Under the pieces are notes generated by a model. The model searched no databases. It saw nothing but the letters and a program-made list of their open reading frames with translations, and had not been told where the DNA came from. Both the position numbers and the translations under genes were made by a program. A stretch of DNA of 64,000 nucleotides, taken from assembly GCA_002245135.1 (NCBI GenBank), contig NGBS01000894.1:62001-126000 (forward strand), read 5' to 3'. The stretch comes from Proteromonas lacertae. Lineage: Eukaryota. Of the stretch, positions 1-63,644 are shown piece by piece (position 1 is the stretch's first letter; each line of letters opens with the position of its first letter).

Positions 1-1
1 A

Positions 2-3000
2 ACTGAATATGGAACAGGTGATATTAATATTGAAACTGGTGAATCAAATATGACAAGTGGAAGTATATATTTTAACACTGGTAATGCAACTGAACAATCA
101 GGTAATATCAATATGAATGTTGGTGTTAGTAAAAATGATAGTGGAAGTGATATTACCTTTAAAAGTGGTGATTCTGAGAATGTTGGTGGAAATACACTTA
201 TTAAAGGTGGTGAAGGTGCATTAGCTGGTGGTAATGTTACAATTAAAGGTGGAAGTGGTGTTTTGAATGATTCTTTAGCTGGCGAAGGTGGTGATGTTGT
301 TATTCAAAATGGTAATACTGAAAGAAATCCACAAAATATCACTGTTAAAGGTGGTAATAGTAAGAATGAAACAGGTGGTAATATAAGAATGGAATCTGGT
401 GAAAGTAAAACTAAAAATAGTGGTAATGCTGAAATAATGACTGGCAATGAAGATGTGGATGGAATTAGTGGAAATATGTTATTTTCAACTGGTAATTCTA
501 CAGTTTCAGCTGGAAATCTTACTATTAAAACAGGAACAACAAAGAATGGTTATCCAGGTAAAATATCAATGAAAATAGGTAAAACATTGAAAGGATTACC
601 TGGAAATATTGAAATAGATGCAGGAAGCACAAATAATGGTAAAGAAGGTGGAAATGTTACATTTACTGGTGGTGATTCAACTTGTGAAATTGATGGAAAA
701 GGTGGATCATTCCACGCAGAAGCAGGTAGTACAACTAGTCAATCACCAGATTCAAAAGGTGGAGATGCAACTGTAGCTTCAGGATCAGCAGATAAAGGTT
801 CAGGAGGTGATGTAGTAGTATCATCTGGCTTTAGTCTCAGAAAGCACAGCGGTGATATTGTTATTAATACTCCTGAATCTGGTGTTTCTGGTATAAGTGG
901 TAATATTGTGATTGAAGTTGGTGATGCTAATAAAACAGGTAATATTACATTTAACACTGGTGATGCATTTAATAGTTCAGCTGGAGATTTCTATTTAGAA
1001 GTTGGACAAAGTGATGTTGAGAAATCAGGTGAAATAAAAATGGCAGCTGGAGATTCTGATGCTGTGAATGGTGTTGGTGGTAAACTATTAATTAAAGGTG
1101 GTGATGGTAAAGGAACAGCTATTACTGATGGAGGAAGTGGTGGTAATATTGATATGAATGCTGGTCATGGTAATGGACAAAGCAGTAGTAATTCAGGAGG
1201 AAGTATATTATCAGTAGCTGGTTCAGCATTTACTGGTTATGGTGGTAATGTTGCTGCTACATCAGGAACAAGTACAACTGGTAGTAGTGGATCTTTAACT
1301 ATGAAGACATCTGATGCTAAATACAGTGGTGCGAGTGGATCTTTAGCTTATAAGACGGGTGATTCAGCAACTGATACATCAGGATCTTTACTTGTTCATG
1401 GTGGTGATAGTGCTGATAATTCTGGTGGTAAAGTTGATTTACAAGTTGGTTCATCAGCTGTTAAAACAGGAGGAAGAATTATTATCAATGCTGGCTTAGG
1501 TAATAATAAAGGTGGTGATATTGTATTTGAAGCAGGTAATAGTGAATATGAAAAGAGTGGAGATGTTGATATGAAAACAGCTGATAGTGCTAAATCTGGT
1601 GATATTGCTGTTAATACTGGTGATTCTTCAGTTGGAAATGCTGGTACTATTGCTATTAATACTGGATCAGTTTCAAATGGTAAAAGTGGTGATATTGATA
1701 TGAAAGCTGGTGATAGTGAAAAAGAAGATGGAGGAAAAGTTGATATTGAAGCTGGTGAAACTAATGGTTTTGGTAAAACTGGAGGAAAAGTAGGATTTTA
1801 TGGTGGTTTAAGTTCTAACACTAGTAAAGTTGGAGATAATGGTGGTAGTGTTAATCTTCAAGGTGGTGATTCATTAGGTAGTAATAGAATTAATGATGGT
1901 GGTGATATTTTATTAAAAGGAGGTAATGCTACATTTGCAAGTGGTGGTAATATCCATATAGTAAGTGGTGAATCTAATCAAGGAAATAGCGGAAATATCA
2001 CTGCTATTACTGCAAATGGTGGTTTTAAAGGTGATAGTGGATCTATTTACACTGATACAGGTAATTCAACTGAAATTACTGGTGATATTAAATTCATTAC
2101 AGGAGATTCAAGTAAAGGATCAGCTGGATCATTTGAAGCAACAGTTGGTACTTCTGATTTATACAAAGGCGGAGATATTAGAATAAAAGCTGGTTCTACA
2201 AGTGAAACATTACCATCCAGAGGTGGTAATATTGAAATGGAAACTGGATTTTCTCTTCAGAAAACCAGTGGTTATATTTCTATTAATACTAATGAAGGTA
2301 ATTCAACAACTGGTGATATTTCGATGGTTACTGGTGATTCAATTCGTGGATCATCAGGTGAAATAACTGTACAATCAAGAGCTTCAGGAAATATCACAAT
2401 TAATACAGGAAATACTAAAGGTTCACCATCTGGCAATATTGGTATTAAAAGTGGAAAAACAAAATATGTTAAAGGATTACCAGGTGCTATTCAATTATCT
2501 GCTGGTCATGGATTAGCTTCTGATTCTAACCCACAAGGTGCATTTGGTGGTAACTTCAATGTTTCAGCTGGTAATGGTATAAATCAAGGTGGTAATATTA
2601 CATTGCAAAGTGGAAATAGTCGTGGTGGTATAAGTGGAAGTATTAATATGACAACTGGTAGTAGTAATGTATTATCATCTGGTACTTTTAATATTTCAAC
2701 ATCTTCAATAAAGAATGGTGAAACAGGTAATATTAATATGAAAACAGGAGATGCTGTTGATAGGAATGCTGGTTCAATTCGTATGGAAACTGGTGATAGT
2801 TTTGGTAATAAGACAGGAAATATTAATCTTAAAACAGCTCATAATGAAGGATATAGTTCAATTGTTCTTAAAGGTAGTGATAATTATTTCGCTGAAGGAG
2901 AAAGTGGTGCTATTCATATTGAAGCTGGAAATGGTAATGTTGGTGGTAACATCTCTGTTTTGACTGGTAATTCAACTATTAATAGTGGAAATATAACATT

Positions 3001-6000
3001 AAAAGGTGGTGATGCAATAATTGGAACAGGTGGTAATATTGAATTAAATACTGGAATTAGTGGTACATCCTCCACTGGAAATATTACTTTTAATACAGGT
3101 GATTCTATGTTAGATAGTGGAAATATTAATGTAGTAACAGGAGATTCTCATGATAAAACTGGTGAAATTGGTATTAAGAGTGGATCATCTATTGGTCAAG
3201 CTGGTAATATTACATTCAAAGTAGGATCCTCTTATAATACAACAGGTAGTAGTTTGTATATTAAAACAGGAGATGATTCAAATAAAGAAGGTACTGGTAG
3301 TTTGGATTTTACTTCAGGTTCATCACCAATACAATCTGGTAATATTGAATTTAATACTTCATCCTCTGAACAATCATCCTCTGGTAATATGACAATAGAG
3401 ACTGGTGATTCAAATGCTATATCTGGTGATATTGTGTTAAACACTGGTAATTCAAAACAAAGTGGAAATATTACATTCAAATCAGGTGATAATTCAGTTG
3501 GTAATGCATCATCAATTTATTTAGAAAGTGGTAATACTACATCAATGATTGGAGAAGCTGGTTCAATTCATGTTAAAGGTGGAGATATAGATTCACCAAA
3601 TTCAATAGATGCAAGTGGTTCAATCAAAATTAAAGGAGGAGAATCTGTTGAAGATGATGGTGGTGATGTTGAATTAAAAGCTGGATATTCAAATGGAGGT
3701 GTTGCTGGATCAATTGATATTATAACCGCAACAAGCACTGAGAATAGTTCAGGTTCAATTAAAATAAATACTGCTGATAAATTAGTTCCAATGAGTGGTA
3801 ATGTTTCATTAACAACTGGTAATGGTGATAATGAAAGTGGAAATATTACATTTAAATCAGGAGATTCAGTTAATTCAAATAGTGGTTCAATTAATATATC
3901 TACTGGAAATGCTGATAAAACATCAGGAGATATATCAATGGAAAGTGGAAATTCCTTATCTAATAAAGAAGGAGGTGATGTTATGATAGAATCAGGAAAA
4001 GGATTAACTAGTGGTGATATTTCATTTGAAACTGGATTATCAAAGAATGGTGTGTCTGGTAATATTGAAATACAATTAACAAATGGAACAAATGGTCAAT
4101 TAAATATTGAATCAGGTAAATCAAGTAGTAAGCAAGGTGGTAGTATTGAAATGAAAAGTGGTGATAGTAACAATGGTGATGGAGGTAATGTTTTAATGAA
4201 TGTTAATAAATTAAATATTACAAGTGGTGAAGGATATACTAAATCTGGTGATATTAATTTCAATACTCCAAATTCACAAATGACATCTGGTTCAATCAAT
4301 TTAGTTACTTCTGATGCTGATAATGTTACAGGAAATATTAATATTACAACTGGTAATACTGTAAATGGTGAAGCTGGAAGAATAGTATTTGAAGGAGGTC
4401 TTTCTAAAGAGAATCTATCAGATTCTATTAGTATTAATGCTGGTAATGTTAGTAGTAAAGATAATATAGCTGGATCAATCCATATCAATGCTGGTGATTC
4501 TGAAAAAGATGCTGGTTCAATAGTTATTCATGCTGGTGATTCAGAAAGTTTGAATTCTGAATCAAAAGGTGGAAAAGTTGGAATTAAAGGAGGTTTTTCA
4601 AATGACACAAGTGGTTCAATAGCAATGAAAACAGGTGATTCAATTCAAGATAGTGGTAGTATTATATTACAGACAAACAATTTAACAATTCCATTCAAAA
4701 GTGGTAATATTGACATAAAGACTGGTTTAGCAAGTAATATATCTGGAAGTATAGATATTTCAATTGGAGAAAGTAATAATACTGGAAATATTGAAATAGA
4801 AACTGGTGAAGGTGGTGTTAGTGGTGGTATATCCATTCAAACTGGTAATAGTAACAACCAAATAGGAAATGTTTCATTCATTTCAGGTAATGGTACTAAA
4901 GCTGGTGATATTAATATTTCAACAATAAAAGGTGAAAGTGGATCTGGAATGATTGATGTTTCTACTGGAAATGGTAATGATGTTGGAAATATTGAGTTTG
5001 TTACTGGTGAAAATAATATGAGTGATTCTGGTATGATTAAAGTAGCTGTTGGTAAAACAGGATCTAAACAAGGTAATAATCTTGTTATTGAAGGAGGAGA
5101 TAATACTGGAGGAGATGGAACAAGTATTGCTATGAAGAGTGGAAGTGGAAAAGAATCTGGTATTTTAGATGTTAATACAAAAGATTCACAAAAATCTGGC
5201 TCAATCTCATTTGAAGCTGGAAATGGTATTGAAAATGGAGGTAATATTGTTATTAATACTGGAAGTGGAATGAATGGTATTTCAGGAAATATCTCAATGC
5301 AAACTGGATCTGAATTAACAGGAAAGAAATCAGGTGATGTAAATGTATTAACTGGAAATGGTGCTGAATATAGTGGAGATCTAAGAATCAATACTGGAAA
5401 TGCAAATGGAAATAGTGGTAATTTATCATCTATCACTGGTAATTCAAAAGAATCATCTGGTTCTATTAATATATTGACTGGTGAAGGAAGTGTTGAAAGT
5501 GGAGAAATTGATATATCTGTAGGATTATCTGAGAATAATTTAGCTGGCAATATATTGATAGAAGCTGGTTTTACTAGTCATACATCATCTCAAGCAGTTG
5601 GAGGATCGATTGATATGAAAACTGGTGATTCTGAAGAAGTATCGGGTAGTATTAAACTACAATCAGCAAATTCTTCGTTATTGTCAGGATCAATTAATAT
5701 AACAACTGGTAATTCAGTTGATCAAAGTGGAGATTTGAATATTGAAATAGGAAGTGGTAAATCGACAGGTGATTTTATTGCTGAAATTGGTACATCTAAT
5801 GATATTAGTGGTAAAATTGAAATTAGTGGTGGAAATAGTAATCAAGGTGAAGGTGGTAATGTTACTTTTGAATCTGGTTCAGGTAAAGTTGGTGGAGATA
5901 TATTAATCAAATCAAATGATTCTAAATCAAGCGGTAAACTATCATTTACAACCGGAGAAAGTAACATCACTTCAGGATCAATCTCATTAACAACTGGTGA

Positions 6001-9000
6001 AGGTGCAATGAACAGTGGTTATATTAGAATGGAATCTGGATCATCAGAATCAGCAACTGGTGGTGATTTTGATATATCAACAGGAAATAGTGAAACAAAC
6101 CAAGGTGGTATTATTGATATAAAGACTGGTGATTCATTGAGTGGAAATACTGGATCAGTTAATATGAAATCTGGAGAAAGTGATAATGGTGTTTCTGGTA
6201 ATGTTGATATTAAAACTGGTGTTAGTGAAAATGAAATATCAGGAAATATTAACTTCCAAACAGGAAATTCATTAAATACTTCTGGTAATATTACCTTTGA
6301 AAGTGGAGATAGTGTTTATGAACCAGGTTCTATTAATCTAAAGACTGGATCAGATGATACAACAGGATTAGGTGGTTCAATTCTTATGCAATCAGGAAAA
6401 GGATTTACTGGTGGTAATATGACTATTATTACTAGAAGTGCAATGGAAAATGGTAATAGTGGTAGTATTAACTTACATACTGGTAATACCGAATTGAATG
6501 TATCTGGTTCAATAATAATCAATACTGGATCATCTGTATCAGGAAATGGAGGTGATATAATAATATTGACGAAAGAAAGTAAATCCAAATCTAATGGAAA
6601 TATAATATTTGAAAGTGGTTATAGTAAAGAAAATGTTGGTGGTTCAATATCTTTGAAGAGTAATGGAATAGATAGTTCAATTTCGATGAGAAGTTCAAAT
6701 ACTATAAAATATGAAACTGGTTCAAGTGTAAATGAATTAAGTGGTTCAATTCGACTAAAGAGTGGAGGAAGTGATTCGTTCAGTGGTACAATCTCTATTG
6801 AAGGTGGATTTAGTAATGATAAATCAGGTGGTTCAATCAAAATGATAGTAGGCTCAAGTAAATTGAGTGTTGGAAGTGATTTACGATTGGAAAGTGGTTT
6901 ATCTGAAGAAAAGAACAGTGGTTCAATAACAATAAAAAGTGGTGAAAGTGGTTATGGAAGTAGTGGTTCAATCTCAATAAAGAGTTTAGGTAAAAACCAA
7001 AGTGGATCAATTTCAATAATAAGTGGTGAAAGTGTTGATGGATCAAGTGGTTCAATAAAATTTGCCAATGGAAATGGTTTAAGTAGTGGAATAATAGCGA
7101 TAGTAAGTGGAGATAGTCGAAGTAATGAAAGTGGTTCAATCTCTTTCCAAAGTGGTGGATCTGATAAAGAAGGTGGTTCAATTTTAATGGAAAGTGGAAC
7201 CGGAATGTTAAGTGGTTCAATAAGATTGCAAAGTGGTGAATCATCTTCTTTAAGTGGTAGTTTGAATATCATAAGTGGAGATAGTAATAATTCCAAATCT
7301 GGTGATATTGAAATCAAGAGTGGAAATAGTAATGAAGTGAGTGGTGCAATCCGATTAAATGGTGGTAATTCATTGAAGAGTGGAGGTTCAATAATCCTTG
7401 AAAGTGGTAATGGTAAATTACTAGGTGGTTCAATAATGTTATCAAGTGGTTCAAGTGAAAATGGAAGTGGAAAAGTGGAGATGAATGGAGGTGAGATGTT
7501 AATAGAAAGTGGTAATTCCTTATCCAAATCTGGTTCAATAATGTTGAATGTAGGTGAAAGTGAAAAATCTGGTGGTTCAATAATCCTTGAAAGTGGAAAT
7601 GGCTTATTAGGTGGATCAATCATATTAAAGAGTGGTAATTCAAAGAATGAAAGTGGATCATTAAGATTAGAAAGTGGTTCTAGTAAAAAGACCAGTGGTT
7701 CAATATTAATAGCGAGTGGTAAATCCTCCAGAGAAAGTGGTTCAATAAGATTAGAAAGTGGTTCAAGTAATAATAAACCTAGTGGTTCGATTCAATTAAT
7801 AAGTGGAGATAGTTCAAGTGGACAAAGTGGTCGAATAATAATCTCTGTAGGTTCAAGTGAGAGTGAAGGAAGTGATTTAAGAATAAAAGGAGGTAAGAGT
7901 GAGAATGACAATGGTGGTAAAATCGAACTATTAAGTGGTAAAGGTAAATTTGGAAGTGGTATGATAATAATTAATACAGGTAGTTTAATAAAGAATGAAG
8001 GAATAAGTGGTTCAATTTATATAAACAGTGGTAAGAATGCTGAAGAGAAGAGTGGGTCAATATTGTTCCAAAGTGGTGAAGGTAAAAAATCAAGTGGTTC
8101 AATTGAAATCTTTAGTGGTTTATCCTCATCTGGAAATTATGGTTCAATCTCTTTAAAATCTGGTCTGAGTAAAATCGAATTAAATGGATTTGATAATAAG
8201 ATAGATGATAAGAAAGGAAGTGATTTAGAGATATCTAGTGGTTCTGGTTTATCTCAAGGTGGTAATATTTTAATAATCAGTGAATTAAAGAGTTCAATAA
8301 AATTGTCAAGTGGAAGTGGTTTATTAAGTGGTTCAATTTTAATAAAAAGTGATGATAGTGAAAATGAGAGTGGTTCATTGAAAATAAAGAGTGGAGATAG
8401 TTTGAAAGGTGATGGTGGTTCTGTGAAAATGCAAAGTGGATCCAGTGATAGTAATGTAAGTGGAAATGGAGGTAATATCATATTGAAAGGAGGTAAAAGT
8501 GAAAATGATGGTGGAAATGTCGAAGTGATAAGTGGTGATAGTTTATCTGGTGATGGTGGTAAAATGTTATTGAAAGGAGGTGATAGTAAAGGAAATGGAG
8601 GTAATATCACATTAGAAAGTGGAGATGGTGAAATGAATGGTGGAGATAGTTTATTACAAAGTGGATCAAGTACAAAATCAAGTGGTGAAATTTTGATTGA
8701 AAGTGGTTCCAGTAAAAAGACTAGTGGTGATATATCAATCGAAAGTGGTGATTCAGTTTCATCAAGTGGTTCAATAATAATGTCAAGTGGATTTGGAAAT
8801 GAAAGTAGTGGAAATATCGAATTTCAAACTGGTAATGCTTCTGTTCAATCAGGATCAATTTATATTAATGATACTAAATTAGTTAAAATCAATGTCCAAC
8901 CATCTACTCTATCTAATAACACTGTTAGTGCAGCTATTATTGTAGAAACTGGTAAAGTTCAATATGGAGGTAGTGGTAATATTTCCATAGAATCATTGAA

Positions 9001-12000
9001 TAATGTTGTTAGTAGCGAATCAATAAATTTACATACTGGTAATACCGAATTGAATGTATCTGGTTCAATAATAATCAATACTGGATCATCTGTATCAGGA
9101 AATGGAGGTGATATAATAATATTGACGAAAGAAAGTAAATCCAAATCTAATGGAAATATAATATTTGAAAGTGGTTATAGTAAAGAAAATGTTGGTGGTT
9201 CAATATCTTTGAAGAGTAATGGAATAGATAGTTCAATTTCGATGAGAAGTTCAAATACTATAAAATATGAAACTGGTTCAAGTGTAAATGAATTAAGTGG
9301 TTCAATTCGACTAAAGAGTGGAGGAAGTGATTCGTTCAGTGGTACAATCTCTATTGAAGGTGGATTTAGTAATGATAAATCAGGTGGTTCAATCAAAATG
9401 ATAGTAGGCTCAAGTAAATTGAGTGTTGGAAGTGATTTACGATTGGAAAGTGGTTTATCTGAAGAAAAGAACAGTGGTTCAATAACAATAAAAAGTGGTG
9501 AAAGTGGTTATGGAAGTAGTGGTTCAATCTCAATAAAGAGTTTAGGTAAAAACCAAAGTGGATCAATTTCAATAATAAGTGGTGAAAGTGTTGATGGATC
9601 AAGTGGTTCAATAAAATTTGCCAATGGAAATGGTTTAAGTAGTGGAATAATAGCGATAGTAAGTGGAGATAGTCGAAGTAATGAAAGTGGTTCAATCTCT
9701 TTCCAAAGTGGTGGATCTGATAAAGAAGGTGGTTCAATTTTAATGGAAAGTGGAACCGGAATGTTAAGTGGTTCAATAAGATTGCAAAGTGGTGAATCAT
9801 CTTCTTTAAGTGGTAGTTTGAATATCATAAGTGGAGATAGTAATAATTCCAAATCTGGTGATATTGAAATCAAGAGTGGAAATAGTAATGAAGTGAGTGG
9901 TGCAATCCGATTAAATGGTGGTAATTCATTGAAGAGTGGAGGTTCAATAATCCTTGAAAGTGGTAATGGTAAATTACTAGGTGGTTCAATAATGTTATCA
10001 AGTGGTTCAAGTGAAAATGGAAGTGGAAAAGTGGAGATGAATGGAGGTGAGATGTTAATAGAAAGTGGTAATTCCTTATCCAAATCTGGTTCAATAATGT
10101 TGAATGTAGGTGAAAGTGAAAAATCTGGTGGTTCAATAATCCTTGAAAGTGGAAATGGCTTATTAGGTGGATCAATCATATTAAAGAGTGGTAATTCAAA
10201 GAATGAAAGTGGATCATTAAGATTAGAAAGTGGTTCTAGTAAAAAGACCAGTGGTTCAATATTAATAGCGAGTGGTAAATCCTCCAGAGAAAGTGGTTCA
10301 ATAAGATTAGAAAGTGGTTCAAGTAATAATAAACCTAGTGGTTCGATTCAATTAATAAGTGGAGATAGTTCAAGTGGACAAAGTGGTCGAATAATAATCT
10401 CTGTAGGTTCAAGTGAGAGTGAAGGAAGTGATTTAAGAATAAAAGGAGGTAAGAGTGAGAATGACAATGGTGGTAAAATCGAACTATTAAGTGGTAAAGG
10501 TAAATTTGGAAGTGGTATGATAATAATTAATACAGGTAGTTTAATAAAGAATGAAGGAATAAGTGGTTCAATTTATATAAACAGTGGTAAGAATGCTGAA
10601 GAGAAGAGTGGGTCAATATTGTTCCAAAGTGGTGAAGGTAAAAAATCAAGTGGTTCAATTGAAATCTTTAGTGGTTTATCCTCATCTGGAAATTATGGTT
10701 CAATCTCTTTAAAATCTGGTCTGAGTAAAATCGAATTAAATGGATTTGATAATAAGATAGATGATAAGAAAGGAAGTGATTTAGAGATATCTAGTGGTTC
10801 TGGTTTATCTCAAGGTGGTAATATTTTAATAATCAGTGAATTAAAGAGTTCAATAAAATTGTCAAGTGGAAGTGGTTTATTAAGTGGTTCAATTTTAATA
10901 AAAAGTGATGATAGTGAAAATGAGAGTGGTTCATTGAAAATAAAGAGTGGAGATAGTTTGAAAGGTGATGGTGGTTCTGTGAAAATGCAAAGTGGATCCA
11001 GTGATAGTAATGTAAGTGGAAATGGAGGTAATATCATATTGAAAGGAGGTAAAAGTGAAAATGATGGTGGAAATGTCGAAGTGATAAGTGGTGATAGTTT
11101 ATCTGGTGATGGTGGTAAAATGTTATTGAAAGGAGGTGATAGTAAAGGAAATGGAGGTAATATCACATTAGAAAGTGGAGATGGTGAAATGAATGGTGGA
11201 GATAGTTTATTACAAAGTGGATCAAGTACAAAATCAAGTGGTGAAATTTTGATTGAAAGTGGTTCCAGTAAAAAGACTAGTGGTGATATATCAATCGAAA
11301 GTGGTGATTCAGTTTCATCAAGTGGTTCAATAATAATGTCAAGTGGATTTGGAAATGAAAGTAGTGGAAATATCGAATTTCAAACTGGTAAAGCCAATCT
11401 AACTAGTGGTGATTTCTTATTAGAAACTGGATCAACTGCATCTCCAAAACATAGTTCTGGTTCAATCAAATTAACTTCAGCACTAGCTAAAATTGCTTCA
11501 GGATCTATTCATATTGAATCATCCAATGCTACTTATAACTCAGGAAGAGTAATGTTTGCTACTGGTAAAGGTCAGGAGACTGGTAGTATTAATGTCAATA
11601 CAGGAAATTCAACAATTAAATCTGGTGATGTTTATATTCAAACTGGTGAGTCAGTATTAGCTACAAGTATTAATATCATTGCAGGAAACAGCACAAAGAA
11701 TAATGGAGGTAATATAACTGTTAATTCTGGTGCTTCTAATAATAGTATATCAGGATCAATTGGTCTTAGAACAGATAATGGTACTCAATCAAGTTCAATC
11801 TCATTTGAAACAGGAAATGCTACAAAGAAATCTGGTGCTATATTATTAGAAACAGGAGATTCAGAAAGTAAAGAGAGTGGTTCAATTAATATGAAAATTG
11901 GTGAATCAGATGTAGAAGGAGGCAATATTAATATTGATGTAGGAGATTCATCAGATAATGGTGGATCAATAGCATTAACATCTGGTTCTGGGGTAAAATC

Positions 12001-45000: not shown

Positions 45001-48000
45001 GTAGTAGTGGTTCAATATCCTTAAATGGTAGTACAATATTAATAAGAATGGGTTCAAGTGGAAGTACATCTGGAACAATAACAATCGATAGTAAAGATGA
45101 ATTAAAAGTTGAGTCTAATGGAAATAAGATATCATTACAAAGTGGAAGTGGAAGTACAGGTGGTTTAATAAAATTAAATGGAAATAATGGAATAATAAAA
45201 CTAGACAGTTCAACAATAACAATTGAAAGTGGAAGTGGTACAACTAGAAGTGGTTCAATATTCTTAAAAGCTGATTTTATAAGTGGAATTACCAAAATTG
45301 AATCAGGAAATGGAAATGAATCTGGTAGTATAAACATAAAAGAAATACAAATTGATGGTTCAACAATTGTTAAAACAGGAAATGGTGGTTCTATTAGTGG
45401 ATCTATAAATGTTAAAATTGGTGAAACTATAAGTATTGGTACAGTAAATGTGATAAATAATGGAAAAAGTATGTATAGTAATGGTATTAGTGCTAGGACA
45501 TTGACACTTGATAGTGGTACTAATAATATAATAACTGGAGGTACAATTAGTTTAAGTTCAACTGCGGTTGATATTTATAGTAATATAAAGTCAAAAGATG
45601 CTGTAGTTGATTCAGATAATATAATTATTAATTCCACATCTCCTGATAATTCTATTAATGTTATTGGAAGTGGTTTAGTTAATTTTAGTTCAGGAAGTAT
45701 TAATATTTATGGAAATATGAAGATTGATACAAATGCACTTACTGTTGGAACTATATTTGTTACAGGAGGTACTATTTCATTAGAAGCAAAGACACAAATG
45801 ATATTGAATGATTTAACAATAACATCCTCTACATTAACCATTGATTCTAGCTCAGTAGGTTCAATTGGAATGAATAAGTTAGATATATCGAGTGAGACAA
45901 TAAGTATAACAGGAAAAGCTTCAAATATATTTACATCTAAAATAACATCAAGTACAATCTCATTAAATTCAGATTACATTAATGTTGATTCTTCAATAAA
46001 GATAGAAGGTTCATCTAGTTTCGCAACTGATTATTCAACAAGTGGATCTATTAGTCTCTCCTATGGTAAGATTGGTTTATCGTCTGGTACTTTAACAATG
46101 AGTGGTAATAATGATAAAATAACTGGAACCACTTTAATCCTTAATTGGTACAACATCAATAGTTACTGCATCTACTATTAGTATATCTGCATCACAATTG
46201 GAATTATCAACTGGATCATTATCTGTAACTCAAGGTACATTTGAATTAAAAGAAACATCAACAATCACATCACCTTCATTATCAATAACTTCATCGACTG
46301 TAACTATTGATGATTTGAAGTCTATGTCAGTTACTACAGGAACAATAACATCCGATATAATTCAAATCACTTCAAGTGATATTAAATTGAATGGTTTAGT
46401 TTTATCTAGTGGAACAATTGTCATGAATGAAAAAATAGCAATCAATTCTTCTGATGATATTCAGATTTCATCAGGTAGTATATCATTACCTGGTACTGTT
46501 ACATTTTCTGCTGGTTCAGGAACAATAGGAGGATCAATATTAATAACTGGATTAGAAAATAGTATTTCTACAACTTCAACTACATCATTAAAGTCATTGA
46601 AATTATCAACATTAGACTCAAGAAATTCAGGAGATGTAAAATTTTCTAGTAAAACATTAAAAATGATTAGTAATTCTAATGAAGGTCCAGAAGGTGTAAG
46701 AATTACTTCAGGTGATGGTGAAGAGAATAGTGGAAAATTAGAATTAGGACATGAAGAAAGTATTACTGAATTGAAAGGAGGAGAAAGTAAAAAAGGTAAA
46801 GGAGGAAATACTATATTAGGAGGTGGTGAAGGAAAACAAGGTGGTGATATAATTGTACAATCTGATAGACCAGTAAATATAACTTCAATAGATGGAAATG
46901 TTGAAATTAAGAATAACTTTGATAATAGCCTAATATCTATAAAGAATATAAATAATGGTTCAATTAATTTCTCTAGTAAGAATTCAATAGAAATTTCAAA
47001 TGAAAATAATGATAGTACTATACTTGTTTCATCTACATCATTCAATTTCTTATCAAATGAGACAATATTGAATGGTAGTATAAGTATTGAAAGTGGTAAA
47101 GGTGTAAACAGTGGAAATATAATAATCGAAGGAATGGTAGATAAGAATACAAATAAAGAAGGTAGTTCAATAATATTAGAAAGTAATAAAGTGAATGGTT
47201 CTATTGAAATATCTAGTGGAAGTGGTTTAAAATCCAATGGTTCAATAATCTTTGAAAGTGGTTCAAACGATAACAAAGTCGGTGAAATATCAATAAACAG
47301 TGATAAGATGGAGATAGGTAAAGAATTGAAATTGGAAAGTGGTAAAGGTTTAATAAATGGCAATATAAATATTGAAAGTAAGATATTTGAATTAAATAAT
47401 AAAGAAAAATCTATGAAGATAGAAAATATGAATGGTAGTTTATTATTGAACAGTAGTAAATTAATATTAAATAATGATGAAATAATATTAGGCAACAAAG
47501 ATTTAGAGAGACTGGAAATCTCCTCTTCGAAAGAAAATATCGAAATGTCTAGTATAAATGGTAAGAAATCGATAAGAATCAATTCTACAAGTGAAGGTAA
47601 AATCAATGAAATAAAGATCGAAAATTCGGAGACAATAATCGATAGTGAAAAATTCGAGATAAATGGAAAAGAAAACAGTTCAATAATAATAGGAAACAAG
47701 AATTCTGAGACAAATCTATTTGGTTCAAAGATCTCAATAGAAAGTAATAATAAATTAGAGATATCAAATAATAACGATGAAAAATTAAAATTGAATGGAA
47801 ATAAGATATTAATAGGAAATGAAAATGAATCTAATATGAGTGAAACTAAAGTAGGTTCAATCTATTTCTTATCAAATGAGACAATATTGAATGGTAGTAT
47901 AAGTATTGAAAGTGGTAAAGGTGTAAACAGTGGAAATATAATAATCGAAGGAATGGTAGATAAGAATACAAATAAAGAAGGTAGTTCAATAATATTAGAA

Positions 48001-51000
48001 AGTAATAAAGTGAATGGTTCTATTGAAATATCTAGTGGAAGTGGTTTAAAATCCAATGGTTCAATAATCTTTGAAAGTGGTTCAAACGATAACAAAGTCG
48101 GTGAAATATTTATAAATAATGAGAATATAAAATTTAATAATGTAGTAAAGTTTGAAGATAATGAAAATGGTAAAATCATAATTAAGAATGATATTGTGAA
48201 GTTACATTCAAATAATCAAATAAAGATTGAATCAAAAAGTTCAAATATAGAATCTGCTGCAATTAATGTTAAATCTGCTAATACTATTATTGAATCAGAG
48301 TCTGCACATGCAAAATCAAAATCCACAGATATTCAATCAAACATATTAAGATTTGAAAATCAAAATTCAATTAAAATATCTACAAACAAAAATGGTTCAA
48401 TCAAAATGAATAGTGTATCTAGTTCGATCGAAATGAATGAAATAACAATTAGAGCATACGATGAATCTAATACTAAAGCTGATAAAATGAGAATTGAAAG
48501 TAGCTCAATCCATATCTTATCAAATGAGACAATATTGAATGGTAGTATAAGTATTGAAAGTGGTAAAGGTGTAAACAGTGGAAATATAATAATCGAAGGA
48601 ATGGTAGATAAGAATACAAATAAAGAAGGTAGTTCAATAATATTAGAAAGTAATAAAGTGAATGGTTCTATTGAAATATCTAGTGGAAGTGGTTTAAAAT
48701 CCAATGGTTCAATAATCTTTGAAAGTGGTTCAAACGATAACAAAGTCGGTGAAATATCAATAAACAGTGATAAGATGGAGATAGGTAAAGAATTGAAATT
48801 GGAAAGTGGTAAAGGTTTAATAAATGGCAATATAAATATTGAAAGTAAGATATTTGAATTAAATAATAAAGAAAAATCTATGAAGATAGAAAATATGAAT
48901 GGTAGTTTATTATTGAACAGTAGTAAATTAATATTAAATAATGATGAAATAATATTAGGCAACAAAGATTTAGAGAGACTGGAAATCTCCTCTTCGAAAG
49001 AAAATATCGAAATGTCTAGTATAAATGGTAAGAAATCGATAAGAATCAATTCTACAAGTGAAGGTAAAATCAATGAAATAAAGATCGAAAATTCGGAGAC
49101 AATAATCGATAGTGAAAAATTCGAGATAAATGGAAAAGAAAACAGTTCAATAATAATAGGAAACAAGAATTCTGAGACAAATCTATTTGGTTCAAAGATC
49201 TCAATAGAAAGTAATAATAAATTAGAGATATCAAATAATAACGATGAAAAATTAAAATTGAATGGAAATAAGATATTAATAGGAAATGAAAATGAATCTA
49301 ATATGAGTGAAACTAAAGTAGGTTCAATCTATTTCTTATCAAATGAGACAATATTGAATGGTAGTATAAGTATTGAAAGTGGTAAAGGTGTAAACAGTGG
49401 AAATATAATAATCGAAGGAATGGTAGATAAGAATACAAATAAAGAAGGTAGTTCAATAATATTAGAAAGTAATAAAGTGAATGGTTCTATTGAAATATCT
49501 AGTGGAAGTGGTTTAAAATCCAATGGTTCAATAATCTTTGATAGTGAAGTAAATGAGTTTAACTCAGAAATGGTTATAATAAAATCTCAAGAGATGAAAT
49601 CCAAACCTACTGGTAAAGCCAGTATTAATAGTAATAAGTTAACAATGACTATAAAAGATGATATTAAAATTAATAGTGATTCAATATCTATAAAATCTGT
49701 AAAACCAGCAGAAGTAAGATCTAAATTGACGAAACTACAAGGTGGATCATCATCAGAAAAAGGAGGTTCTATAATGGTATCTGAAATTTTATTAAATAAT
49801 ACTGAAAATTCAATTCATTTTACCGATTCTAATCGTTCTGTTGATCATGGAAGTGGTATAGAGCTGAAAATAAACGAAATTTTAAGTGATAATATAACCT
49901 TATCAAGCGGTGATGGTAATAATGAAAGTGGTGATGTATATATTCACAGTGAAAAGAAGTTGATATTAAATAATAATGACATAAAATTGAACAGTGGTAA
50001 TGGAAATAAGAATAGTGGTTCAATAAAGTTGAATAGTAGTTCATTGTTGCTAACTGTAAATGAAACAGTATTAAAGAGTGGTAATAGTGAAAAAGAAAGT
50101 GGTAATATCGAAATTAATAGTAAAGAATTGGTAAAAATGAATAGTGAAGATATAAATATATCATTAGGAAAGAATAATAAATTAAAAGAAGATAGTTCAA
50201 TAATAATATCTGGTGGAAATAATAATTCAAGTGAAAACAATGTTGGATCAATCCATATCTTATCAAATGAGACAATATTGAATGGTAGTATAAGTATTGA
50301 AAGTGGTAAAGGTGTAAACAGTGGAAATATAATAATCGAAGGAATGGTAGATAAGAATACAAATAAAGAAGGTAGTTCAATAATATTAGAAAGTAATAAA
50401 GTGAATGGTTCTATTGAAATATCTAGTGGAAGTGGTTTAAAATCCAATGGTTCAATAATCTTTGAAAGTGGTTCAAACGATAACAAAGTCGGTGAAATAT
50501 CAATAAACAGTGATAAGATGGAGATAGGTAAAGAATTGAAATTGGAAAGTGGTAAAGGTTTAATAAATGGCAATATAAATATTGAAAGTAAGATATTTGA
50601 ATTAAATAATAAAGAAAAATCTATGAAGATAGAAAATATGAATGGTAGTTTATTATTGAACAGTAGTAAATTAATATTAAATAATGATGAAATAATATTA
50701 GGCAACAAAGATTTAGAGAGACTGGAAATCTCCTCTTCGAAAGAAAATATCGAAATGTCTAGTATAAATGGTAAGAAATCGATAAGAATCAATTCTACAA
50801 GTGAAGGTAAAATCAATGAAATAAAGATCGAAAATTCGGAGACAATAATCGATAGTGAAAAATTCGAGATAAATGGAAAAGAAAACAGTTCAATAATAAT
50901 AGGAAACAAGAATTCTGAGACAAATCTATTTGGTTCAAAGATCTCGATAGAAAGTGATGAAATAATAATGAAGAGTGAAAAGTCGTCTGGAATAATAATG

Positions 51001-54000
51001 TCCGATATAAATGGTACAATCTCCCTAAATAGTATAAAAGAAAATATGAATAATTCAATAATAATGGAAAGTATGTCAAAAGGAGAAATCGAATTATCTA
51101 GTGAAAAATCAATCGAAATTTCAAGTGATAAGAAAGATAGTTCAATAATAATATCTGGTGGAAATAATAATTCAAGTGAAAACAATGTTGGATCAATCCA
51201 TATCTTATCAAATGAGACAATATTGAATGGTAGTATAAGTATTGAAAGTGGTAAAGGTGTAAACAGTGGAAATATAATAATCGAAGGAATGGTAGATAAG
51301 AATACAAATAAAGAAGGTAGTTCAATAATATTAGAAAGTAATAAAGTGAATGGTTCTATTGAAATATCTAGTGGAAGTGGTTTAAAATCCAATGGTTCAA
51401 TAATCTTTGAAAGTGGTTCAAACGATAACAAAGTCGGTGAAATATCAATAAACAGTGATAAGATGGAGATAGGTAAAGAATTGAAATTGGAAAGTGGTAA
51501 AGGTTTAATAAATGGCAATATAAATATTGAAAGTAAGATATTTGAATTAAATAATAAAGAAAAATCTATGAAGATAGAAAATATGAATGGTAGTTTATTA
51601 TTGAACAGTAGTAAATTAATATTAAATAATGATGAAATAATATTAGGCAACAAAGATTTAGAGAGACTGGAAATCTCCTCTTCGAAAGAAAATATCGAAA
51701 TGTCTAGTATAAATGGTAAGAAATCGATAAGAATCAATTCTACAAGTGAAGGTAAAATCAATGAAATAAAGATCGAAAATTCGGAGACAATAATCGATAG
51801 TGAAAAATTCGAGATAAATGGAAAAGAAAACAGTTCAATAATAATAGGAAACAAGAATTCTGAGACAAATCTATTTGGTTCAAAGATCTCAATAGAAAGT
51901 AATAATAAATTAGAGATATCAAATAATAACGATGAAAAATTAAAATTGAATGGAAATAAGATATTAATAGGAAATGAAAATGAATCTAATATGAGTGAAA
52001 CTAAAGTAGGTTCAATCTATTTCTTATCAAATGAGACAATATTGAATGGTAGTATAAGTATTGAAAGTGGTAAAGGTGTAAACAGTGGAAATATAATAAT
52101 CGAAGGAATGGTAGATAAGAATACAAATAAAGAAGGTAGTTCAATAATATTAGAAAGTAATAAAGTGAATGGTTCTATTGAAATATCTAGTGGAAGTGGT
52201 TTAAAATCCAATGGTTCAATAATCTTTGAAAGTGGTTCAAACGATAACAAAGTCGGTGAAATATTTATAAATAATGAGAATATAAAATTTAATAATGTAG
52301 TAAAGTTTGAAGATAATGAAAATGGTAAAATCATAATTAAGAATGATATTGTGAAGTTACATTCAAATAATCAAATAAAGATTGAATCAAAAAGTTCAAA
52401 TATAGAATCTGCTGCAATTAATGTTAAATCTGCTAATACTATTATTGAATCAGAGTCTGCACATGCAAAATCAAAATCCACAGATATTCAATCAAACATA
52501 TTAAGATTTGAAAATCAAAATTCAATTAAAATATCTACAAACAAAAATGGTTCAATCAAAATGAATAGTGTATCTAGTTCGATCGAAATGAATGAAATAA
52601 CAATTAGAGCATACGATGAATCTAATACTAAAGCTGATAAAATGAGAATTGAAAGTAGCTCAATCCATATCTTATCAAATGAGACAATATTGAATGGTAG
52701 TATAAGTATTGAAAGTGGTAAAGGTGTAAACAGTGGAAATATAATAATCGAAGGAATGGTAGATAAGAATACAAATAAAGAAGGTAGTTCAATAATATTA
52801 GAAAGTAATAAAGTGAATGGTTCTATTGAAATATCTAGTGGAAGTGGTTTAAAATCCAATGGTTCAATAATCTTTGAAAGTGGTTCAAACGATAACAAAG
52901 TCGGTGAAATATCAATAAACAGTGATAAGATGGAGATAGGTAAAGAATTGAAATTGGAAAGTGGTAAAGGTTTAATAAATGGCAATATAAATATTGAAAG
53001 TAAGATATTTGAATTAAATAATAAAGAAAAATCTATGAAGATAGAAAATATGAATGGTAGTTTATTATTGAACAGTAGTAAATTAATATTAAATAATGAT
53101 GAAATAATATTAGGCAACAAAGATTTAGAGAGACTGGAAATCTCCTCTTCGAAAGAAAATATCGAAATGTCTAGTATAAATGGTAAGAAATCGATAAGAA
53201 TCAATTCTACAAGTGAAGGTAAAATCAATGAAATAAAGATCGAAAATTCGGAGACAATAATCGATAGTGAAAAATTCGAGATAAATGGAAAAGAAAACAG
53301 TTCAATAATAATAGGAAACAAGAATTCTGAGACAAATCTATTTGGTTCAAAGATCTCAATAGAAAGTAATAATAAATTAGAGATATCAAATAATAACGAT
53401 GAAAAATTAAAATTGAATGGAAATAAGATATTAATAGGAAATGAAAATGAATCTAATATGAGTGAAACTAAAGTAGGTTCAATCTATTTCTTATCAAATG
53501 AGACAATATTGAATGGTAGTATAAGTATTGAAAGTGGTAAAGGTGTAAACAGTGGAAATATAATAATCGAAGGAATGGTAGATAAGAATACAAATAAAGA
53601 AGGTAGTTCAATAATATTAGAAAGTAATAAAGTGAATGGTTCTATTGAAATATCTAGTGGAAGTGGTTTAAAATCCAATGGTTCAATAATCTTTGATAGT
53701 GAAGTAAATGAGTTTAACTCAGAAATGGTTATAATAAAATCTCAAGAGATGAAATCCAAACCTACTGGTAAAGCCAGTATTAATAGTAATAAGTTAACAA
53801 TGACTATAAAAGATGATATTAAAATTAATAGTGATTCAATATCTATAAAATCTGTAAAACCAGCAGAAGTAAGATCTAAATTGACGAAACTACAAGGTGG
53901 ATCATCATCAGAAAAAGGAGGTTCTATAATGGTATCTGAAATTTTATTAAATAATACTGAAAATTCAATTCATTTTACCGATTCTAATCGTTCTGTTGAT

Positions 54001-57000
54001 CATGGAAGTGGTATAGAGCTGAAAATAAACGAAATTTTAAGTGATAATATAACCTTATCAAGCGGTGATGGTAATAATGAAAGTGGTGATGTATATATTC
54101 ACAGTGAAAAGAAGTTGATATTAAATAATAATGACATAAAATTGAACAGTGGTAATGGAAATAAGAATAGTGGTTCAATAAAGTTGAATAGTAGTTCATT
54201 GTTGCTAACTGTAAATGAAACAGTATTAAAGAGTGGTAATAGTGAAAAAGAAAGTGGTAATATCGAAATTAATAGTAAAGAATTGGTAAAAATGAATAGT
54301 GAAGATATAAATATATCATTAGGAAAGAATAATAAATTAAAAGAAGATAGTTCAATAATAATATCTGGTGGAAATAATAATTCAAGTGAAAACAATGTTG
54401 GATCAATCCATATCTTATCAAATGAGACAATATTGAATGGTAGTATAAGTATTGAAAGTGGTAAAGGTGTAAACAGTGGAAATATAATAATCGAAGGAAT
54501 GGTAGATAAGAATACAAATAAAGAAGGTAGTTCAATAATATTAGAAAGTAATAAAGTGAATGGTTCTATTGAAATATCTAGTGGAAGTGGTTTAAAATCC
54601 AATGGTTCAATAATCTTTGAAAGTGGTTCAAACGATAACAAAGTCGGTGAAATATCAATAAACAGTGATAAGATGGAGATAGGTAAAGAATTGAAATTGG
54701 AAAGTGGTAAAGGTTTAATAAATGGCAATATAAATATTGAAAGTAAGATATTTGAATTAAATAATAAAGAAAAATCTATGAAGATAGAAAATATGAATGG
54801 TAGTTTATTATTGAACAGTAGTAAATTAATATTAAATAATGATGAAATAATATTAGGCAACAAAGATTTAGAGAGACTGGAAATCTCCTCTTCGAAAGAA
54901 AATATCGAAATGTCTAGTATAAATGGTAAGAAATCGATAAGAATCAATTCTACAAGTGAAGGTAAAATCAATGAAATAAAGATCGAAAATTCGGAGACAA
55001 TAATCGATAGTGAAAAATTCGAGATAAATGGAAAAGAAAACAGTTCAATAATAATAGGAAACAAGAATTCTGAGACAAATCTATTTGGTTCAAAGATCTC
55101 GATAGAAAGTGATGAAATAATAATGAAGAGTGAAAAGTCGTCTGGAATAATAATGTCCGATATAAATGGTACAATCTCCCTAAATAGTATAAAAGAAAAT
55201 ATGAATAATTCAATAATAATGGAAAGTATGTCAAAAGGAGAAATCGAATTATCTAGTGAAAAATCAATCGAAATTTCAAGTGATAAGAAAGATAGTTCAA
55301 TAATAATATCTGGTGGAAATAATAATTCAAGTGAAAACAATGTTGGATCAATCCATATCTTATCAAATGAGACAATATTGAATGGTAGTATAAGTATTGA
55401 AAGTGGTAAAGGTGTAAACAGTGGAAATATAATAATCGAAGGAATGGTAGATAAGAATACAAATAAAGAAGGTAGTTCAATAATATTAGAAAGTAATAAA
55501 GTGAATGGTTCTATTGAAATATCTAGTGGAAGTGGTTTAAAATCCAATGGTTCAATAATCTTTGAAAGTGGTTCAAACGATAACAAAGTCGGTGAAATAT
55601 CAATAAACAGTGATAAGATGGAGATAGGTAAAGAATTGAAATTGGAAAGTGGTAAAGGTTTAATAAATGGCAATATAAATATTGAAAGTAAGATATTTGA
55701 ATTAAATAATAAAGAAAAATCTATGAAGATAGAAAATATGAATGGTAGTTTATTATTGAACAGTAGTAAATTAATATTAAATAATGATGAAATAATATTA
55801 GGCAACAAAGATTTAGAGAGACTGGAAATCTCCTCTTCGAAAGAAAATATCGAAATGTCTAGTATAAATGGTAAGAAATCGATAAGAATCAATTCTACAA
55901 GTGAAGGTAAAATCAATGAAATAAAGATCGAAAATTCGGAGACAATAATCGATAGTGAAAAATTCGAGATAAATGGAAAAGAAAACAGTTCAATAATAAT
56001 AGGAAACAAGAATTCTGAGACAAATCTATTTGGTTCAAAGATCTCAATAGAAAGTAATAATAAATTAGAGATATCAAATAATAACGATGAAAATTAAATG
56101 TGAAAAAGTCGTCTGGAATAATAATGTCCGATATAAATGGTACAATCTCCCTAAATAGTATAAAAGAAAATATGAATAATTCAATAATAATGGAAAGTAT
56201 GTCAAAAGGAGAAATCGAATTATCTAGTGAAAAATCAATCGAAATTTCAAGTGATAAGAAAGATAGTTCAATAATAATATCTGGTGGAAATAATAATTCA
56301 AGTGAAAACAAATGTTGGATCAATCTATTTCTTATCAAATGAGACAATATTGAATGGTAGTATAAGTATTGAAAGTGGTAAAGGTGTAAACAGTGGAAAT
56401 ATAATAATCGAAGGAATGGTAGATAAGAATACAAATAAAGAAGGTAGTTCAATAATATTAGAAAGTAATAAAGTGAATGGTTCTATTGAAATATCTAGTG
56501 GAAGTGGTTTAAAATCCAATGGTTCAATAATCTTTGAAAGTGGTTCAAACGATAACAAAGTCGGTGAAATATCAATAAACAGTGATAAGATGGAGATAGG
56601 TAAAGAATTGAAATTGGAAAGTGGTAAAGGTTTAATAAATGGCAATATAAATATTGAAAGTAAGATATTTGAATTAAATAATAAAGAAAAATCTATGAAG
56701 ATAGAAAATATGAATGGTAGTTTATTATTGAACAGTAGTAAATTAATATTAAATAATGATGAAATAATATTAGGCAACAAAGATTTAGAGAGACTGGAAA
56801 TCTCCTCTTCGAAAGAAAATATCGAAATGTCTAGTATAAATGGTAAGAAATCGATAAGAATCAATTCTACAAGTGAAGGTAAAATCAATGAAATAAAGAT
56901 CGAAAATTCGGAGACAATAATCGATAGTGAAAAATTCGAGATAAATGGAAAAGAAAACAGTTCAATAATAATAGGAAACAAGAATTCTGAGACAAATCTA

Positions 57001-58666
57001 TTTGGTTCAAAGATCTCGATAGAAAGTGATGAAATAATAATGAAGAGTGAAAAGTCGTCTGGAATAATAATGTCCGATATAAATGGTACAATCTCCCTAA
57101 ATAGTATAAAAGAAAATATGAATAATTCAATAATAATGGAAAGTATGTCAAAAGGAGAAATCGAATTATCTAGTGAAAAATCAATTCGAAATTTCAAGTG
57201 ATAAGAAAGATAGTTCAATAATAATATCTGGTGGAAATAATAATTCAAGTGAAAACAATGTTGGATCAATCTATTTCTTATCAAATGAGACAATATTGAA
57301 TGGTAGTATAAGTATTGAAAGTGGTAAAGGTGTAAACAGTGGAAATATAATAATCGAAGGAATGGTAGATAAGAATACAAATAAAGAAGGTAGTTCAATA
57401 ATATTAGAAAGTAATAAAGTGAATGGTTCTATTGAAATATCTAGTGGAAGTGGTTTAAAATCCAATGGTTCAATAATCTTTGAAAGTGGTTCAAACGATA
57501 ACAAAGTCGGTGAAATATCAATAAACAGTGATAAGATGGAGATAGGTAAAGAATTGAAATTGGAAAGTGGTAAAGGTTTAATAAATGGCAATATAAATAT
57601 TGAAAGTAAGATATTTGAATTAAATAATAAAGAAAAATCTATGAAGATAGAAAATATGAATGGTAGTTTATTATTGAACAGTAGTAAATTAATATTAAAT
57701 AATGATGAAATAATATTAGGCAACAAAGATTTAGAGAGACTGGAAATCTCCTCTTCGAAAGAAAATATCGAAATGTCTAGTATAAATGGTAAGAAATCGA
57801 TAAGAATCAATTCTACAAGTGAAGGTAAAATCAATGAAATAAAGATCGAAAATTCGGAGACAATAATCGATAGTGAAAAATTCGAGATAAATGGAAAGAA
57901 GATATCAATAGTCAGTATAAATGATAGTAAGTATCAATCAATTAAGACAAAATTACAATCTAAGAAAATCAAATTTAGTATGAACGTTAGTGAACCATTA
58001 GTAGTGAAATCACTTCATATTAGTAATAATGAAAATACATCTAATTTACATATATTATCAACCACTAATTCAAGTGAAGTAAATGTTATATCAAATTATA
58101 TTAATAATAAATCAAATATTATTACAATTTCATCCTTAAGTAGATCAAAATCTAATGTTCTTATTAATTCAAAGAATATATCTCTCAGTAGTGGAAGAAA
58201 TGGAAATGTTACAATAGAATCTGATGAAATGAGAATAAAATCAAATTCTGCTAAGAAGTCAAAGATAGTATTTAATGCAAGTAGTAATAACTTACACTCA
58301 AATAAATCTGTTTCAATTGATACAGGAAATAATTCAGTAAGTATAACAGAAGAAGGTTTAACTGTGAAGAGAAAGAATTTACCTGAAGGTTTAACTCCAT
58401 TTATATTAACTGGTTTAACAACATTTGAATATAATGTGAATGGTACTCTTCAAATATATGCATGTGAACGTCATGCATTCCCTGATAATAAGGTTAAATA
58501 CAATGATTTTGTTAAAATAACAGTTTCAGGAAAAGAATCAGAAAATGTTGATTCTTCTGTGTTTATAAATAAGAAGTTCAAAGGAGTAAGAATATGTAGT
58601 AGAGATAAATCAGTCAATTATGATTTAACAATAAAAGCATTAGTATATCAATCAGGAAACAAATAA
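2..58666 (+). CDS. Giant intronless Gly/Ser/Ile-rich beta-repeat (fibre-like) protein of at least ~19,500 aa with an internal Peptidase S74 autoprocessing domain; 5' end lies outside the window; five apparent indel errors
   Basis: The frame is open from base 2 (TEYGTGDINIETGESNM...). ORFs 50-22606, 22473-46181, 46198-56097, 56100-56342, 56284-57201 and 57173-58666 continue the same repeat grammar across breaks at ~22535, ~46146, ~56092-56105, ~56310 and ~57185. The last two are single extra bases relative to identical repeat copies. The gene ends at TAA 58664-58666, followed by AT-rich non-coding DNA. Confidence 0.85.
6473..11391 (+). repeat. Two apparently identical in-frame copies of a 2363-bp coding segment (6473-8835 and 9029-11391) separated by a 193-bp unique spacer
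   Basis: Offset of 2556 bp confirmed at both ends, and by duplicated antisense ORFs (6619 vs 9175, 8254 vs 10810). Confidence 0.95.
13154..13486 (+). other. Peptidase S74 / intramolecular chaperone autoprocessing (ICA) domain within the giant CDS
   Basis: YP|SDRRIKENIKVIDVDNILQRLQLLELKSYTYTKEW...VRGVIAQEAYEVFPEYIV...IDLLAAIQSF matches the SD.R.K.NI / G.IAQE...FP..V / L..AIQ consensus of phage tail-spike chaperones and MYRF. Ser codon 13154-13156, Lys codon 13169-13171. Confidence 0.92.
22794..28398 (+). repeat. Mosaic of identical in-frame coding modules (2-5 copies each) with short unique spacers (24398-24627, ~26203-26268)
   Basis: The SGSIYINSSDSSVVG module recurs 5 times. The long module recurs at offsets 1602 and 3798 (antisense ORFs at 23435, 25037, 27233). 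Confidence 0.93.
29565..40336 (+). repeat. 1998-bp (666-aa) unit: full copies at ~31343, ~33341 and ~38087, plus partial copies at ~29565, ~35339, ~36360 and ~40085, with unique spacers
   Basis: DGSISIVGGSGAKTSG start motif occurs 7 times. Offsets of 1998 and 6744 are seen in the antisense ORF track. Spacers at ~30630-31340, ~35936-36359 and ~37532-38082. Confidence 0.93.
40326..45259 (+). repeat. Higher-order coding repeat: 2340-bp unit made of 894+768+678-bp subunits, two copies plus a partial copy
   Basis: agtggttcaatatccttaaatgg starts at 40326, 41220, 41988, 42666, 43560, 44328 and 45006. Confidence 0.95.
47047..57897 (+). repeat. Higher-order coding repeat: 13 copies of a core (LSNETILNGSISIESG...) arranged as a 4155-bp pentamer (819+648+819+924+945) x2 plus three further units
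   Basis: tcaaatgagacaatattg starts at 47053, 47872, 48520, 49339, 50263, 51208, 52027, 52675, 53494, 54418, 55363, 56335 and 57281. Confidence 0.95.
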
Positions 58667-59570: not shown

Positions 59571-59683
59571 AATCTTTACAAAACTATTCCAAAATTCAAT
59601 TGAAAAATGAAAAAACAATTTCCAAGCTTTTTCGAACTTTTCTTATTTAAATTTAAATTTTATGATAAACCATCAAATTTGAG
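59571..59683. promoter_or_regulatory. Probable compact bidirectional promoter between head-to-head genes
   Basis: Only 113 bp of AT-rich sequence separate the divergent ATGs at 59570 (-) and 59684 (+). Confidence 0.5.
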
Positions 59684-61829: not shown

Positions 61830-61892
61830 TTATAAAACTGAAATTTAAAAAATAATTATTGTGAAACGAATATAATTTTTAAATATAAATGA

Positions 61893-63269: not shown

Positions 63270-63644
63270 TATTCAATCAAAAGAAAAAAGGAATAAAAAA
63301 ATCAAGCCAAACCTATAAAAAAACTATATAATCATATTATGGATAAAGATATAAGTAAATTACAATCATTTATGTATATGCTTAAATGAAATATATCTAC
63401 AAAAATAAAAAAAATGAACCGTCATCAAAAATATATAATTGCTCACAAAGGAATTATTACCTAAAATAACAACAGCATTTTCATTTATAGTTTTCATGGA
63501 AATATTTCTTTTTGAGTAATTTTTGATACTTCAAGAAAAATCTGAAAAATGCAGTGAAACACAAATCCCAGCTTGTCAAGAGTTTGAGATTGAAATTGTT
63601 TATTTGAGTTTTTCTAAGTAATACTCATGAATAATTAAATCGAC

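Follow-up and report, generated by a model that had tools for sequence, protein, structure and literature searches.

How can a single open locus of a protist, running from position 2 to position 58666 of the + strand, be read, and what would its product be? The question is raised by the stretch of Proteromonas lacertae DNA analysed here, 64,000 nt of contig NGBS01000894.1 (positions 62,001 to 126,000, forward strand), referred to below as the window. We consider it probable that the locus is one nuclear gene for a secreted triple-stranded beta-helix fibre, in which an internal S74/ICA domain sets the register of the chains and likely makes one cut, between Pro4384 and Ser4385. The frame is already open at base 2, thus the start codon is missing and the 5' end of the gene lies outside the window.

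Repeats, the S74/ICA domain and the predicted trimer

Six in-frame segments, trimmed at the five frame breaks that separate them, add up to 19,537 codons, in line with the at least ~19,500 given in an earlier note on this DNA. Single segments stay free of stop codons for 7,500-7,900 codons. The G+C content of the window is 30%, and the G+C fraction at third codon positions (GC3) of the fibre gene is 0.12. The product is rich in Ser (20.8%), Gly (15.5%), Ile (13.1%) and Asn (9.3%), and contains 4 Cys, 2 Trp and 65 Pro. The scarcity of the latter three residues had been remarked on before, as had the lack of a transmembrane or glycosylphosphatidylinositol (GPI) signal at the C-terminus; we found no hydrophobic stretch of membrane length or GPI type (19-residue Kyte-Doolittle maximum 0.59 in the last 120 sliding windows and 1.53 overall). 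The small unique C-terminal domain was also recovered: its approximately 160 residues had no homologue in the protein word-index, profile or other searches run, an Atlas lead (score 0.78) being the only one, and its single-sequence model had a predicted local distance difference test value (pLDDT) of 35.

The strict motif G-x-I-x-I-x-[ST]-G occurred 188 times, compared with 2.3 times in local shuffles (at most 6 across 100 shuffles), and a looser form 634 times compared with 31.5. The consensus of the repeat is [SG]-G-[SND]-I-x-[ILF]-x-[ST]-G-x-[SG], with 14, 13 and 15 residues as the commonest spacings. Motif density was 33-53 per 1000 residues up to residue 10,000, 21-34 up to residue 15,000 and 11-13 afterwards, so that 'near-continuous' fits roughly the initial two thirds of the chain and not what lies beyond residue ~15,000. 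Sequence searches of the PDB with repeat regions gave no match. The number of N-x-S/T sequons (436), whose abundance had been taken to indicate N-glycosylation, did not exceed the shuffle mean of 463 expected from composition, and sequon enrichment was rejected.

A single S74 match was found in the gene, Pfam PF13884 at positions 13154-13360 (E 2.9e-13; 50.3 bits, cut-off 22), and corresponds to the one internal chaperone domain of the earlier note. The predicted cut leaves at least 4,384 residues ahead of the site and 15,153 behind it. In MYRF, the cut falls between P586 and S587, K592 is required and Y615 and Y617 are used (PMC8326128). The Pro-Ser pair, the Lys at +5 (Lys4390) and the Tyr residues at +28 and +30 of the window ICA match these residues. 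Since all four MYRF cleavage residues are kept, the site looks active, and the self-cleavage proposed earlier would find its predicted site, with a Ser-Lys dyad five residues apart, intact. The MYRF ICA (7dc3) is also the closest solved relative, with E 2.2e-6 by sequence and 3.9e-16 by profile (next best 0.027). When compared with the model of the window ICA it gave a VIA-align Z of 10.3 (root mean square deviation, rmsd, 4.5 over 138 residues) and was ranked best by Foldseek as well; the phage ICA structures of K1F endosialidase (3gw6) and T5 L-fibre (4uw8) gave Z 6.1 and 5.8. A PHROG tail fibre family matched over neck and ICA (E 1.3e-17). The likeness to phage fibres drawn earlier is therefore shown for the ICA region only; among the repeats, four of four pieces outside the ICA matched no PHROG family, and the ICA itself is closer to MYRF.

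An AlphaFold2 monomer model of positions 12710-13708, built on an alignment of 85 sequences, had a mean pLDDT of 87.4, and the blocks of repeat, the ends apart, averaged 81-89. The repeats were confidently modelled yet lacked intrachain strands, the picture to be expected if three chains intertwine, and a helix was placed at model residues 241-258. The stretch of model residues 1-102 gave alignments to triple beta-helices, namely those of VgrG (6sjl; Z 5.4, rmsd 2.3, 66 aligned residues) and HylP1 (2c3f; Z 3.8); together with phi92 endosialidase these alignments spanned a middling Z 5.4 to 3.6. The three-copy model scored 0.84, whereas the best of three controls scored 0.00; its pLDDT was at least 75 and the runs agreed in at least 93% of the contacts. 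Confident contacts reached into the repeat on either side of the ICA (residues 22-67 and 288-330). In calibration, 21 of 30 solved homo-pairs passed, but none of the 23 single chains (for eukaryotes, 17 of 29 and 0 of 30). These predictions argue for the homotrimeric triple-beta fibre suggested in the earlier note. Counting 1,613 strand-like cores at 0.48 nm, the fibre would measure 0.77 micrometre, and with the rise of the fibril TLP-12 (0.96 nm per 12 residues; see below) 1.56 micrometre; the previous figure of 0.5-1 micrometre was of the right order, 0.8-1.6 micrometre being our estimate.

Reading frame and duplicated blocks

Across each of the five breaks the repeat runs on in another frame. 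Two of them, near 56310 and 57185, come from a single surplus base relative to five and three sister copies, respectively, and on that ground are probably assembly errors; the break near 56095 is a noisy junction between two block types. The remaining two, near 22535 and 46140, lie in unique sequence that has no sister copy. The sequence on both sides of them is repeat, unlike the 33-38-nt AT-rich introns of the neighbouring genes. We infer that all five breaks are assembly errors, that the gene is 'intronless' across them and that one transcript is made from the whole locus.

Mosaic blocks duplicated at an identity of at least 95% (95-100%) and up to 4.9 kb long make up 60% of the span, so the true number of copies may differ. 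Among the 62 listed pairs of at least 500 bp, all that lie wholly before position 56,105 are offset by a multiple of three, and other offsets occur only in pairs reaching the last broken segments. The DNA itself shows that fibre length changes through in-frame duplication of blocks. After removal of all later copies 10,905 non-redundant codons were left, hence the gene is giant in any case.

It is in our estimation unlikely that the locus, though genuine, is shorter than it looks or interrupted, either because the assembly inflated its blocks or because the breaks are true and decayed or separate genes follow on the 3' side. Such a locus would account for the near-identity of so much of the span and for the clustering of three breaks, one of them the noisy junction, within 1.1 kb of the last repeat block; it would not account for the codons that survive removal of each later copy, for the length of the stop-free segments, for the way in which the repeat carries on past each break or for relatives that occupy loci of 15-20 kb from end to end.

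Relatives, cutting and secretion

A HMMER search over 1.84 billion representatives found 141 homologue clusters, a few at the tail being MYRF-like, whereas word-index protein searches with the ICA region (407-2000 aa; 4143-13183 aa) found no match. Thirty clusters were looked up: five were named oomycete, two came from archaeal metagenome bins, one was a EukProt entry without organism and 22 had no taxon. An Atlas cluster scoring 0.94 was mostly Oomycota. The 'Peptidase S74 domain-containing' hypothetical proteins of Phytophthora infestans (PITG_01491), Aphanomyces, Achlya and Nothophytophthora are direct homologues with the same neck, ICA and flanking repeat, but are annotated as pieces of 300-860 residues. 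No paper naming PITG_01491 was found, nor any published description of this S74 repeat family in stramenopiles, protists or oomycetes, the search having covered mainly papers outside subscription. A prokaryotic genome scan with narrow patterns gave no relative among 46 pattern matches. In an ICA tree built by a quick method (116 rows, 118 columns) the window grouped with the repeat family with weak support, and no strongly supported set contained it.

An internal ICA is the norm of the family. Sixty proteins had the complete domain and 60 or more residues behind it; in 52 of them the ICA was followed by at least two repeat motifs. Some family members carry 2-4 ICAs. Repeat filled 17 of 18 metagenome loci (about eight distinct genes after merging near-copies by eye), spanning 20 kb in L015. 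When 300-residue pieces of the window product were compared with seven loci by tblastn, repeat likeness without collinearity was seen.

Two side observations concern these relatives. In L007 (1-6652) and L008 (1-11334) the fibre gene keeps to the first frame of the + strand from end to end, and the in-frame stops were TAG only (10 of 10 and 25 of 25), with no TAA or TGA; this points to TAG being read as a residue in the eukaryote concerned, plausibly Gln from the repeat positions. The family members P0119 and P0040 carry the label of tail fibre proteins from archaeal metagenome bins; their 3-kb contigs are possibly eukaryotic and mis-binned.

Whether the window fibre is cut can be judged against the family. 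Of the 122 ICA domains that span both sites, a set to which the window's belongs, 96 keep Ser and Lys, whereas 26 lack the Ser and 19 of these have Ala instead. L009, an open frame of 5,046 codons (1-15139), has four ICA domains, half of them with the Ser-Lys dyad, and P0001 has three, one of them intact. As the catalytic Ser is absent from part of the family, the domain is likely a registering node first and a cutter optionally. The same trimeric fibre might accordingly stay uncut, the ICA only registering the chains, or its pieces might remain intertwined. The Ser-less domains and the mixture of intact and dead copies within the 5,046 residues of L009 are what such a fibre would lead one to expect, but the retention of Ser and Lys in most domains, and of all four MYRF cleavage residues in the window copy, makes it improbable.

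The loci L006 and L011/L021 reach the start of the gene and encode a hydrophobic N-terminus, a Cys-rich PSI-like domain and then repeat; in L021 a 226-nt GT-AG intron separates the N-terminus from the PSI-like domain. Secretion, as claimed earlier, is probable for the window product too, judging from the signal-like start and PSI-like domain of these relatives. Extrusome contents also travel via the secretory path, and an intracellular or extrusome filament instead of a surface fibre would be compatible with this as well as with the lack of a visible anchor and the absence of the N-terminus from the window. We regard it as very unlikely, since the Cys-rich cap and signal-like start of the relatives point to an extracytoplasmic site and TLP-12 is described as a free glycan-coated fibril.

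In the preferred reading, a secreted fibre with one internal registering and probably cutting ICA, an N-terminal signal peptide and a Cys-rich PSI-like cap, as in the relatives, would direct the chain into the secretory path. Three ICA domains are predicted to trimerise via their C-terminal helices. On either side of the ICA, each repeat of 13-15 residues would contribute one short strand with Ile pointing inward and a loop of Gly and Ser, and zipping would spread outward from the ICA both ways. The conserved Ser-Lys dyad would then cleave the chain into an N piece of at least 4,384 residues, 0.15-0.35 micrometre long or more, and an ICA-headed C piece of 15,153 residues, 0.6-1.2 micrometre long, with a small end knob. 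Loop serines may bear O-glycans, by analogy with TLP-12 only. Fibre length changes via in-frame block duplication.

Several points weigh against this reading. The 5' end is missing from the window and its own signal peptide is thus not seen; in the relatives, the signal peptides were judged from hydropathy only and the PSI scores (19.4-22.9 bits) fall just below the Pfam cut-off of 23.1. The last quarter of the chain departs from the motif. Repeat-part Z values below 8 may reflect a common arrangement. The trimer model covers 333 of 19,537 residues, its calibration was based on two copies, and its pass may owe something to solved ICA trimers that the predictor had learned. Close to the breaks at 22535 and 46140 there are GT-AG pairs that would restore the frame. 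Finally, differences between duplicated copies were 25 synonymous and 57 non-synonymous (21% synonymous expected), with no strong purifying signal.

Known systems, neighbouring genes and meaning

The nearest known system is TLP-12, which is reported to be a glycan-coated three-chain beta fibril seen by cryo-electron microscopy (cryo-EM), whose candidate genes, and candidates only, encode Amoebophrya proteins of ~20,000 residues such as A0A8J1ZHD7, with a C-terminal ICA (bioRxiv 10.1101/2025.09.30.679562). The same preprint has a list of ~150 candidates, which may bear on novelty. Both systems have a protist protein of ~20,000 residues, short Gly/Ser-rich repeats, an ICA and a three-chain intertwined beta stem (predicted in our case). 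They differ in the repeat, strictly a 12-residue GSxxSx7 unit in the described TLP-12 and of period 13-15 in the window gene, where 0 of 136 GSxx[ST] motif matches had a partner 12 residues away. They differ also in the ICA, C-terminal in the alveolate candidates described there, internal with 15,153 residues behind it here, with oomycetes as named relatives. The claim that no characterised eukaryotic system has this architecture has thus been overtaken by TLP-12, although repeat and ICA position differ. A titin-scale protist ICA fibre is already in print; the window gene departs from it in the 13-15 period and the internal ICA, and belongs to a family for which no description was found.

MYRF (7dc3; PMC8326128, PMC3742443) shares the internal ICA, the Pro/Ser site, the Ser-Lys dyad, two Tyr, an upstream beta stalk and a trimerising C-terminal helix, but it is bound to a membrane, acts as a transcription factor and has a single short stalk. 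No MYRF/MrfA-type DNA-binding domain or transmembrane helix was seen in the window gene, and repeats flank its ICA. Phage tailspikes and fibres share the ICA fold behind a triple beta-helix and the tail fibre PHROG match over neck and ICA; the phage ICA is C-terminal and discarded, that of the window internal.

Intron-bearing host genes begin ~110 bp beyond the stop codon and have introns of 33-38 nt; within 5 kb downstream lie a gene with an SRP_SPB-like exon, a SNARE-like gene and a PAK kinase (Table 1). The locus is compact eukaryotic nuclear DNA. A Blastocystis-type motif occurred 0 times in the window (5.65 expected). An endogenised fibre gene of a polinton-like virus (PLV) or giant virus is extremely unlikely: PLV fibres often have a C-terminal S74 domain and reach 3.9 k residues (PMC12220804) and the ICA region matches phage tail fibre families, but intron-bearing host genes adjoin the stop codon, relatives contain spliceosomal introns, the viral matches (five generic ICA matches among 28 in viral contigs) are weak, confined to the ICA region and without repeat, and the window ICA groups, with weak support, with the repeat family.

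Table 1. Positions of the fibre gene, its parts and the neighbouring genes in the window
Feature	Positions	Strand	Remarks
Long open stretches	2-22603, 22452-46178, 46138-56094, 56278-57198, 57137-58663	+	tile 2-58663
Short sixth open segment	near 56100-56310	+
Stop codon	58664-58666	+
Upstream fibre piece	2..13153	+	at least 4,384 residues; 13-15-residue [SG]-G-x-I-x-I-x-[ST]-G-x-S repeats, then ~90-residue neck ahead of the predicted cut site
Tandem duplication	6467-8838 / 9023-11394	+	2,556 bp; within upstream piece
S74/ICA chaperone and C-terminal helix	13154..13490	+	Ser codon of the predicted cut at 13154
Downstream repeats, non-duplicated part	13491..22603	+	first frame break near 22535
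Ser/Ile/Gly-rich repeats	22452..46178	+	mosaic in-frame duplicated blocks, 0.6-2.7 kb; second break near 46140
Degenerate repeats richer in Asn/Lys/Glu	46138..57897	+	duplicated blocks up to 4.9 kb; breaks near 56095, 56310, 57185
Unique end	57898..58666	+	C-terminal domain of ~110-160 residues (3 Cys), unassigned fold, no membrane anchor
Intron-split gene	58779-59700	-	one exon matches SRP_SPB (E 3.6e-5, below cut-off); seems much shorter than full SRP54
Small SNARE-like gene	59650-60146	+	C-terminal hydrophobic tail (read by eye); unspliced frame without Pfam SNARE match
Intron-rich gene	60240-61830	-	first exon Ser/Arg/Thr-rich
PAK-type kinase	62057-63067	-	PBD and kinase domains, then 37-nt intron
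Gene edge	63640-64000	+	faint Ig-like match (Big_12, E 0.011)

Tubular mastigonemes of Ochromonas have reportedly been studied by cryo-EM. One may ask whether the family provides stramenopile hairs, the tubular ones of flagella or those of the cell surface, with a core or a terminal filament whose length is encoded by gene length. Several internal ICA nodes would then register one giant precursor, live nodes cutting it into fibres of set length, dead nodes clamping it permanently and their order programming length; we put this forward as a doubtful proposal. A study of Ochromonas hairs describes one to three terminal filaments and an assembly that begins in the perinuclear continuum (PMC2108286), which makes a role in hairs conceivable. 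Data sets from three flagellar or zoospore studies lent it no support: the term S74 was not found in the supplementary lists examined for two proteomes, and gene number 1491 was not in one flagellar list, these lists being homology-based or partial.

The window gene and its relatives make up a wide family of giant triple-beta fibre genes. Oomycetes, Phytophthora and Aphanomyces among them, have such genes, and the annotation of the named members covers no more than pieces. They supply sequence candidates for the orphan fibrils now visible by cryo-EM. They also widen the view of the ICA domain, which besides being a chaperone at the chain end that is thrown away can be a node inside the chain, present in several copies and in some cases unable to cut. 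The family offers a concrete test case for how micrometre-scale surface filaments of protists set their length.

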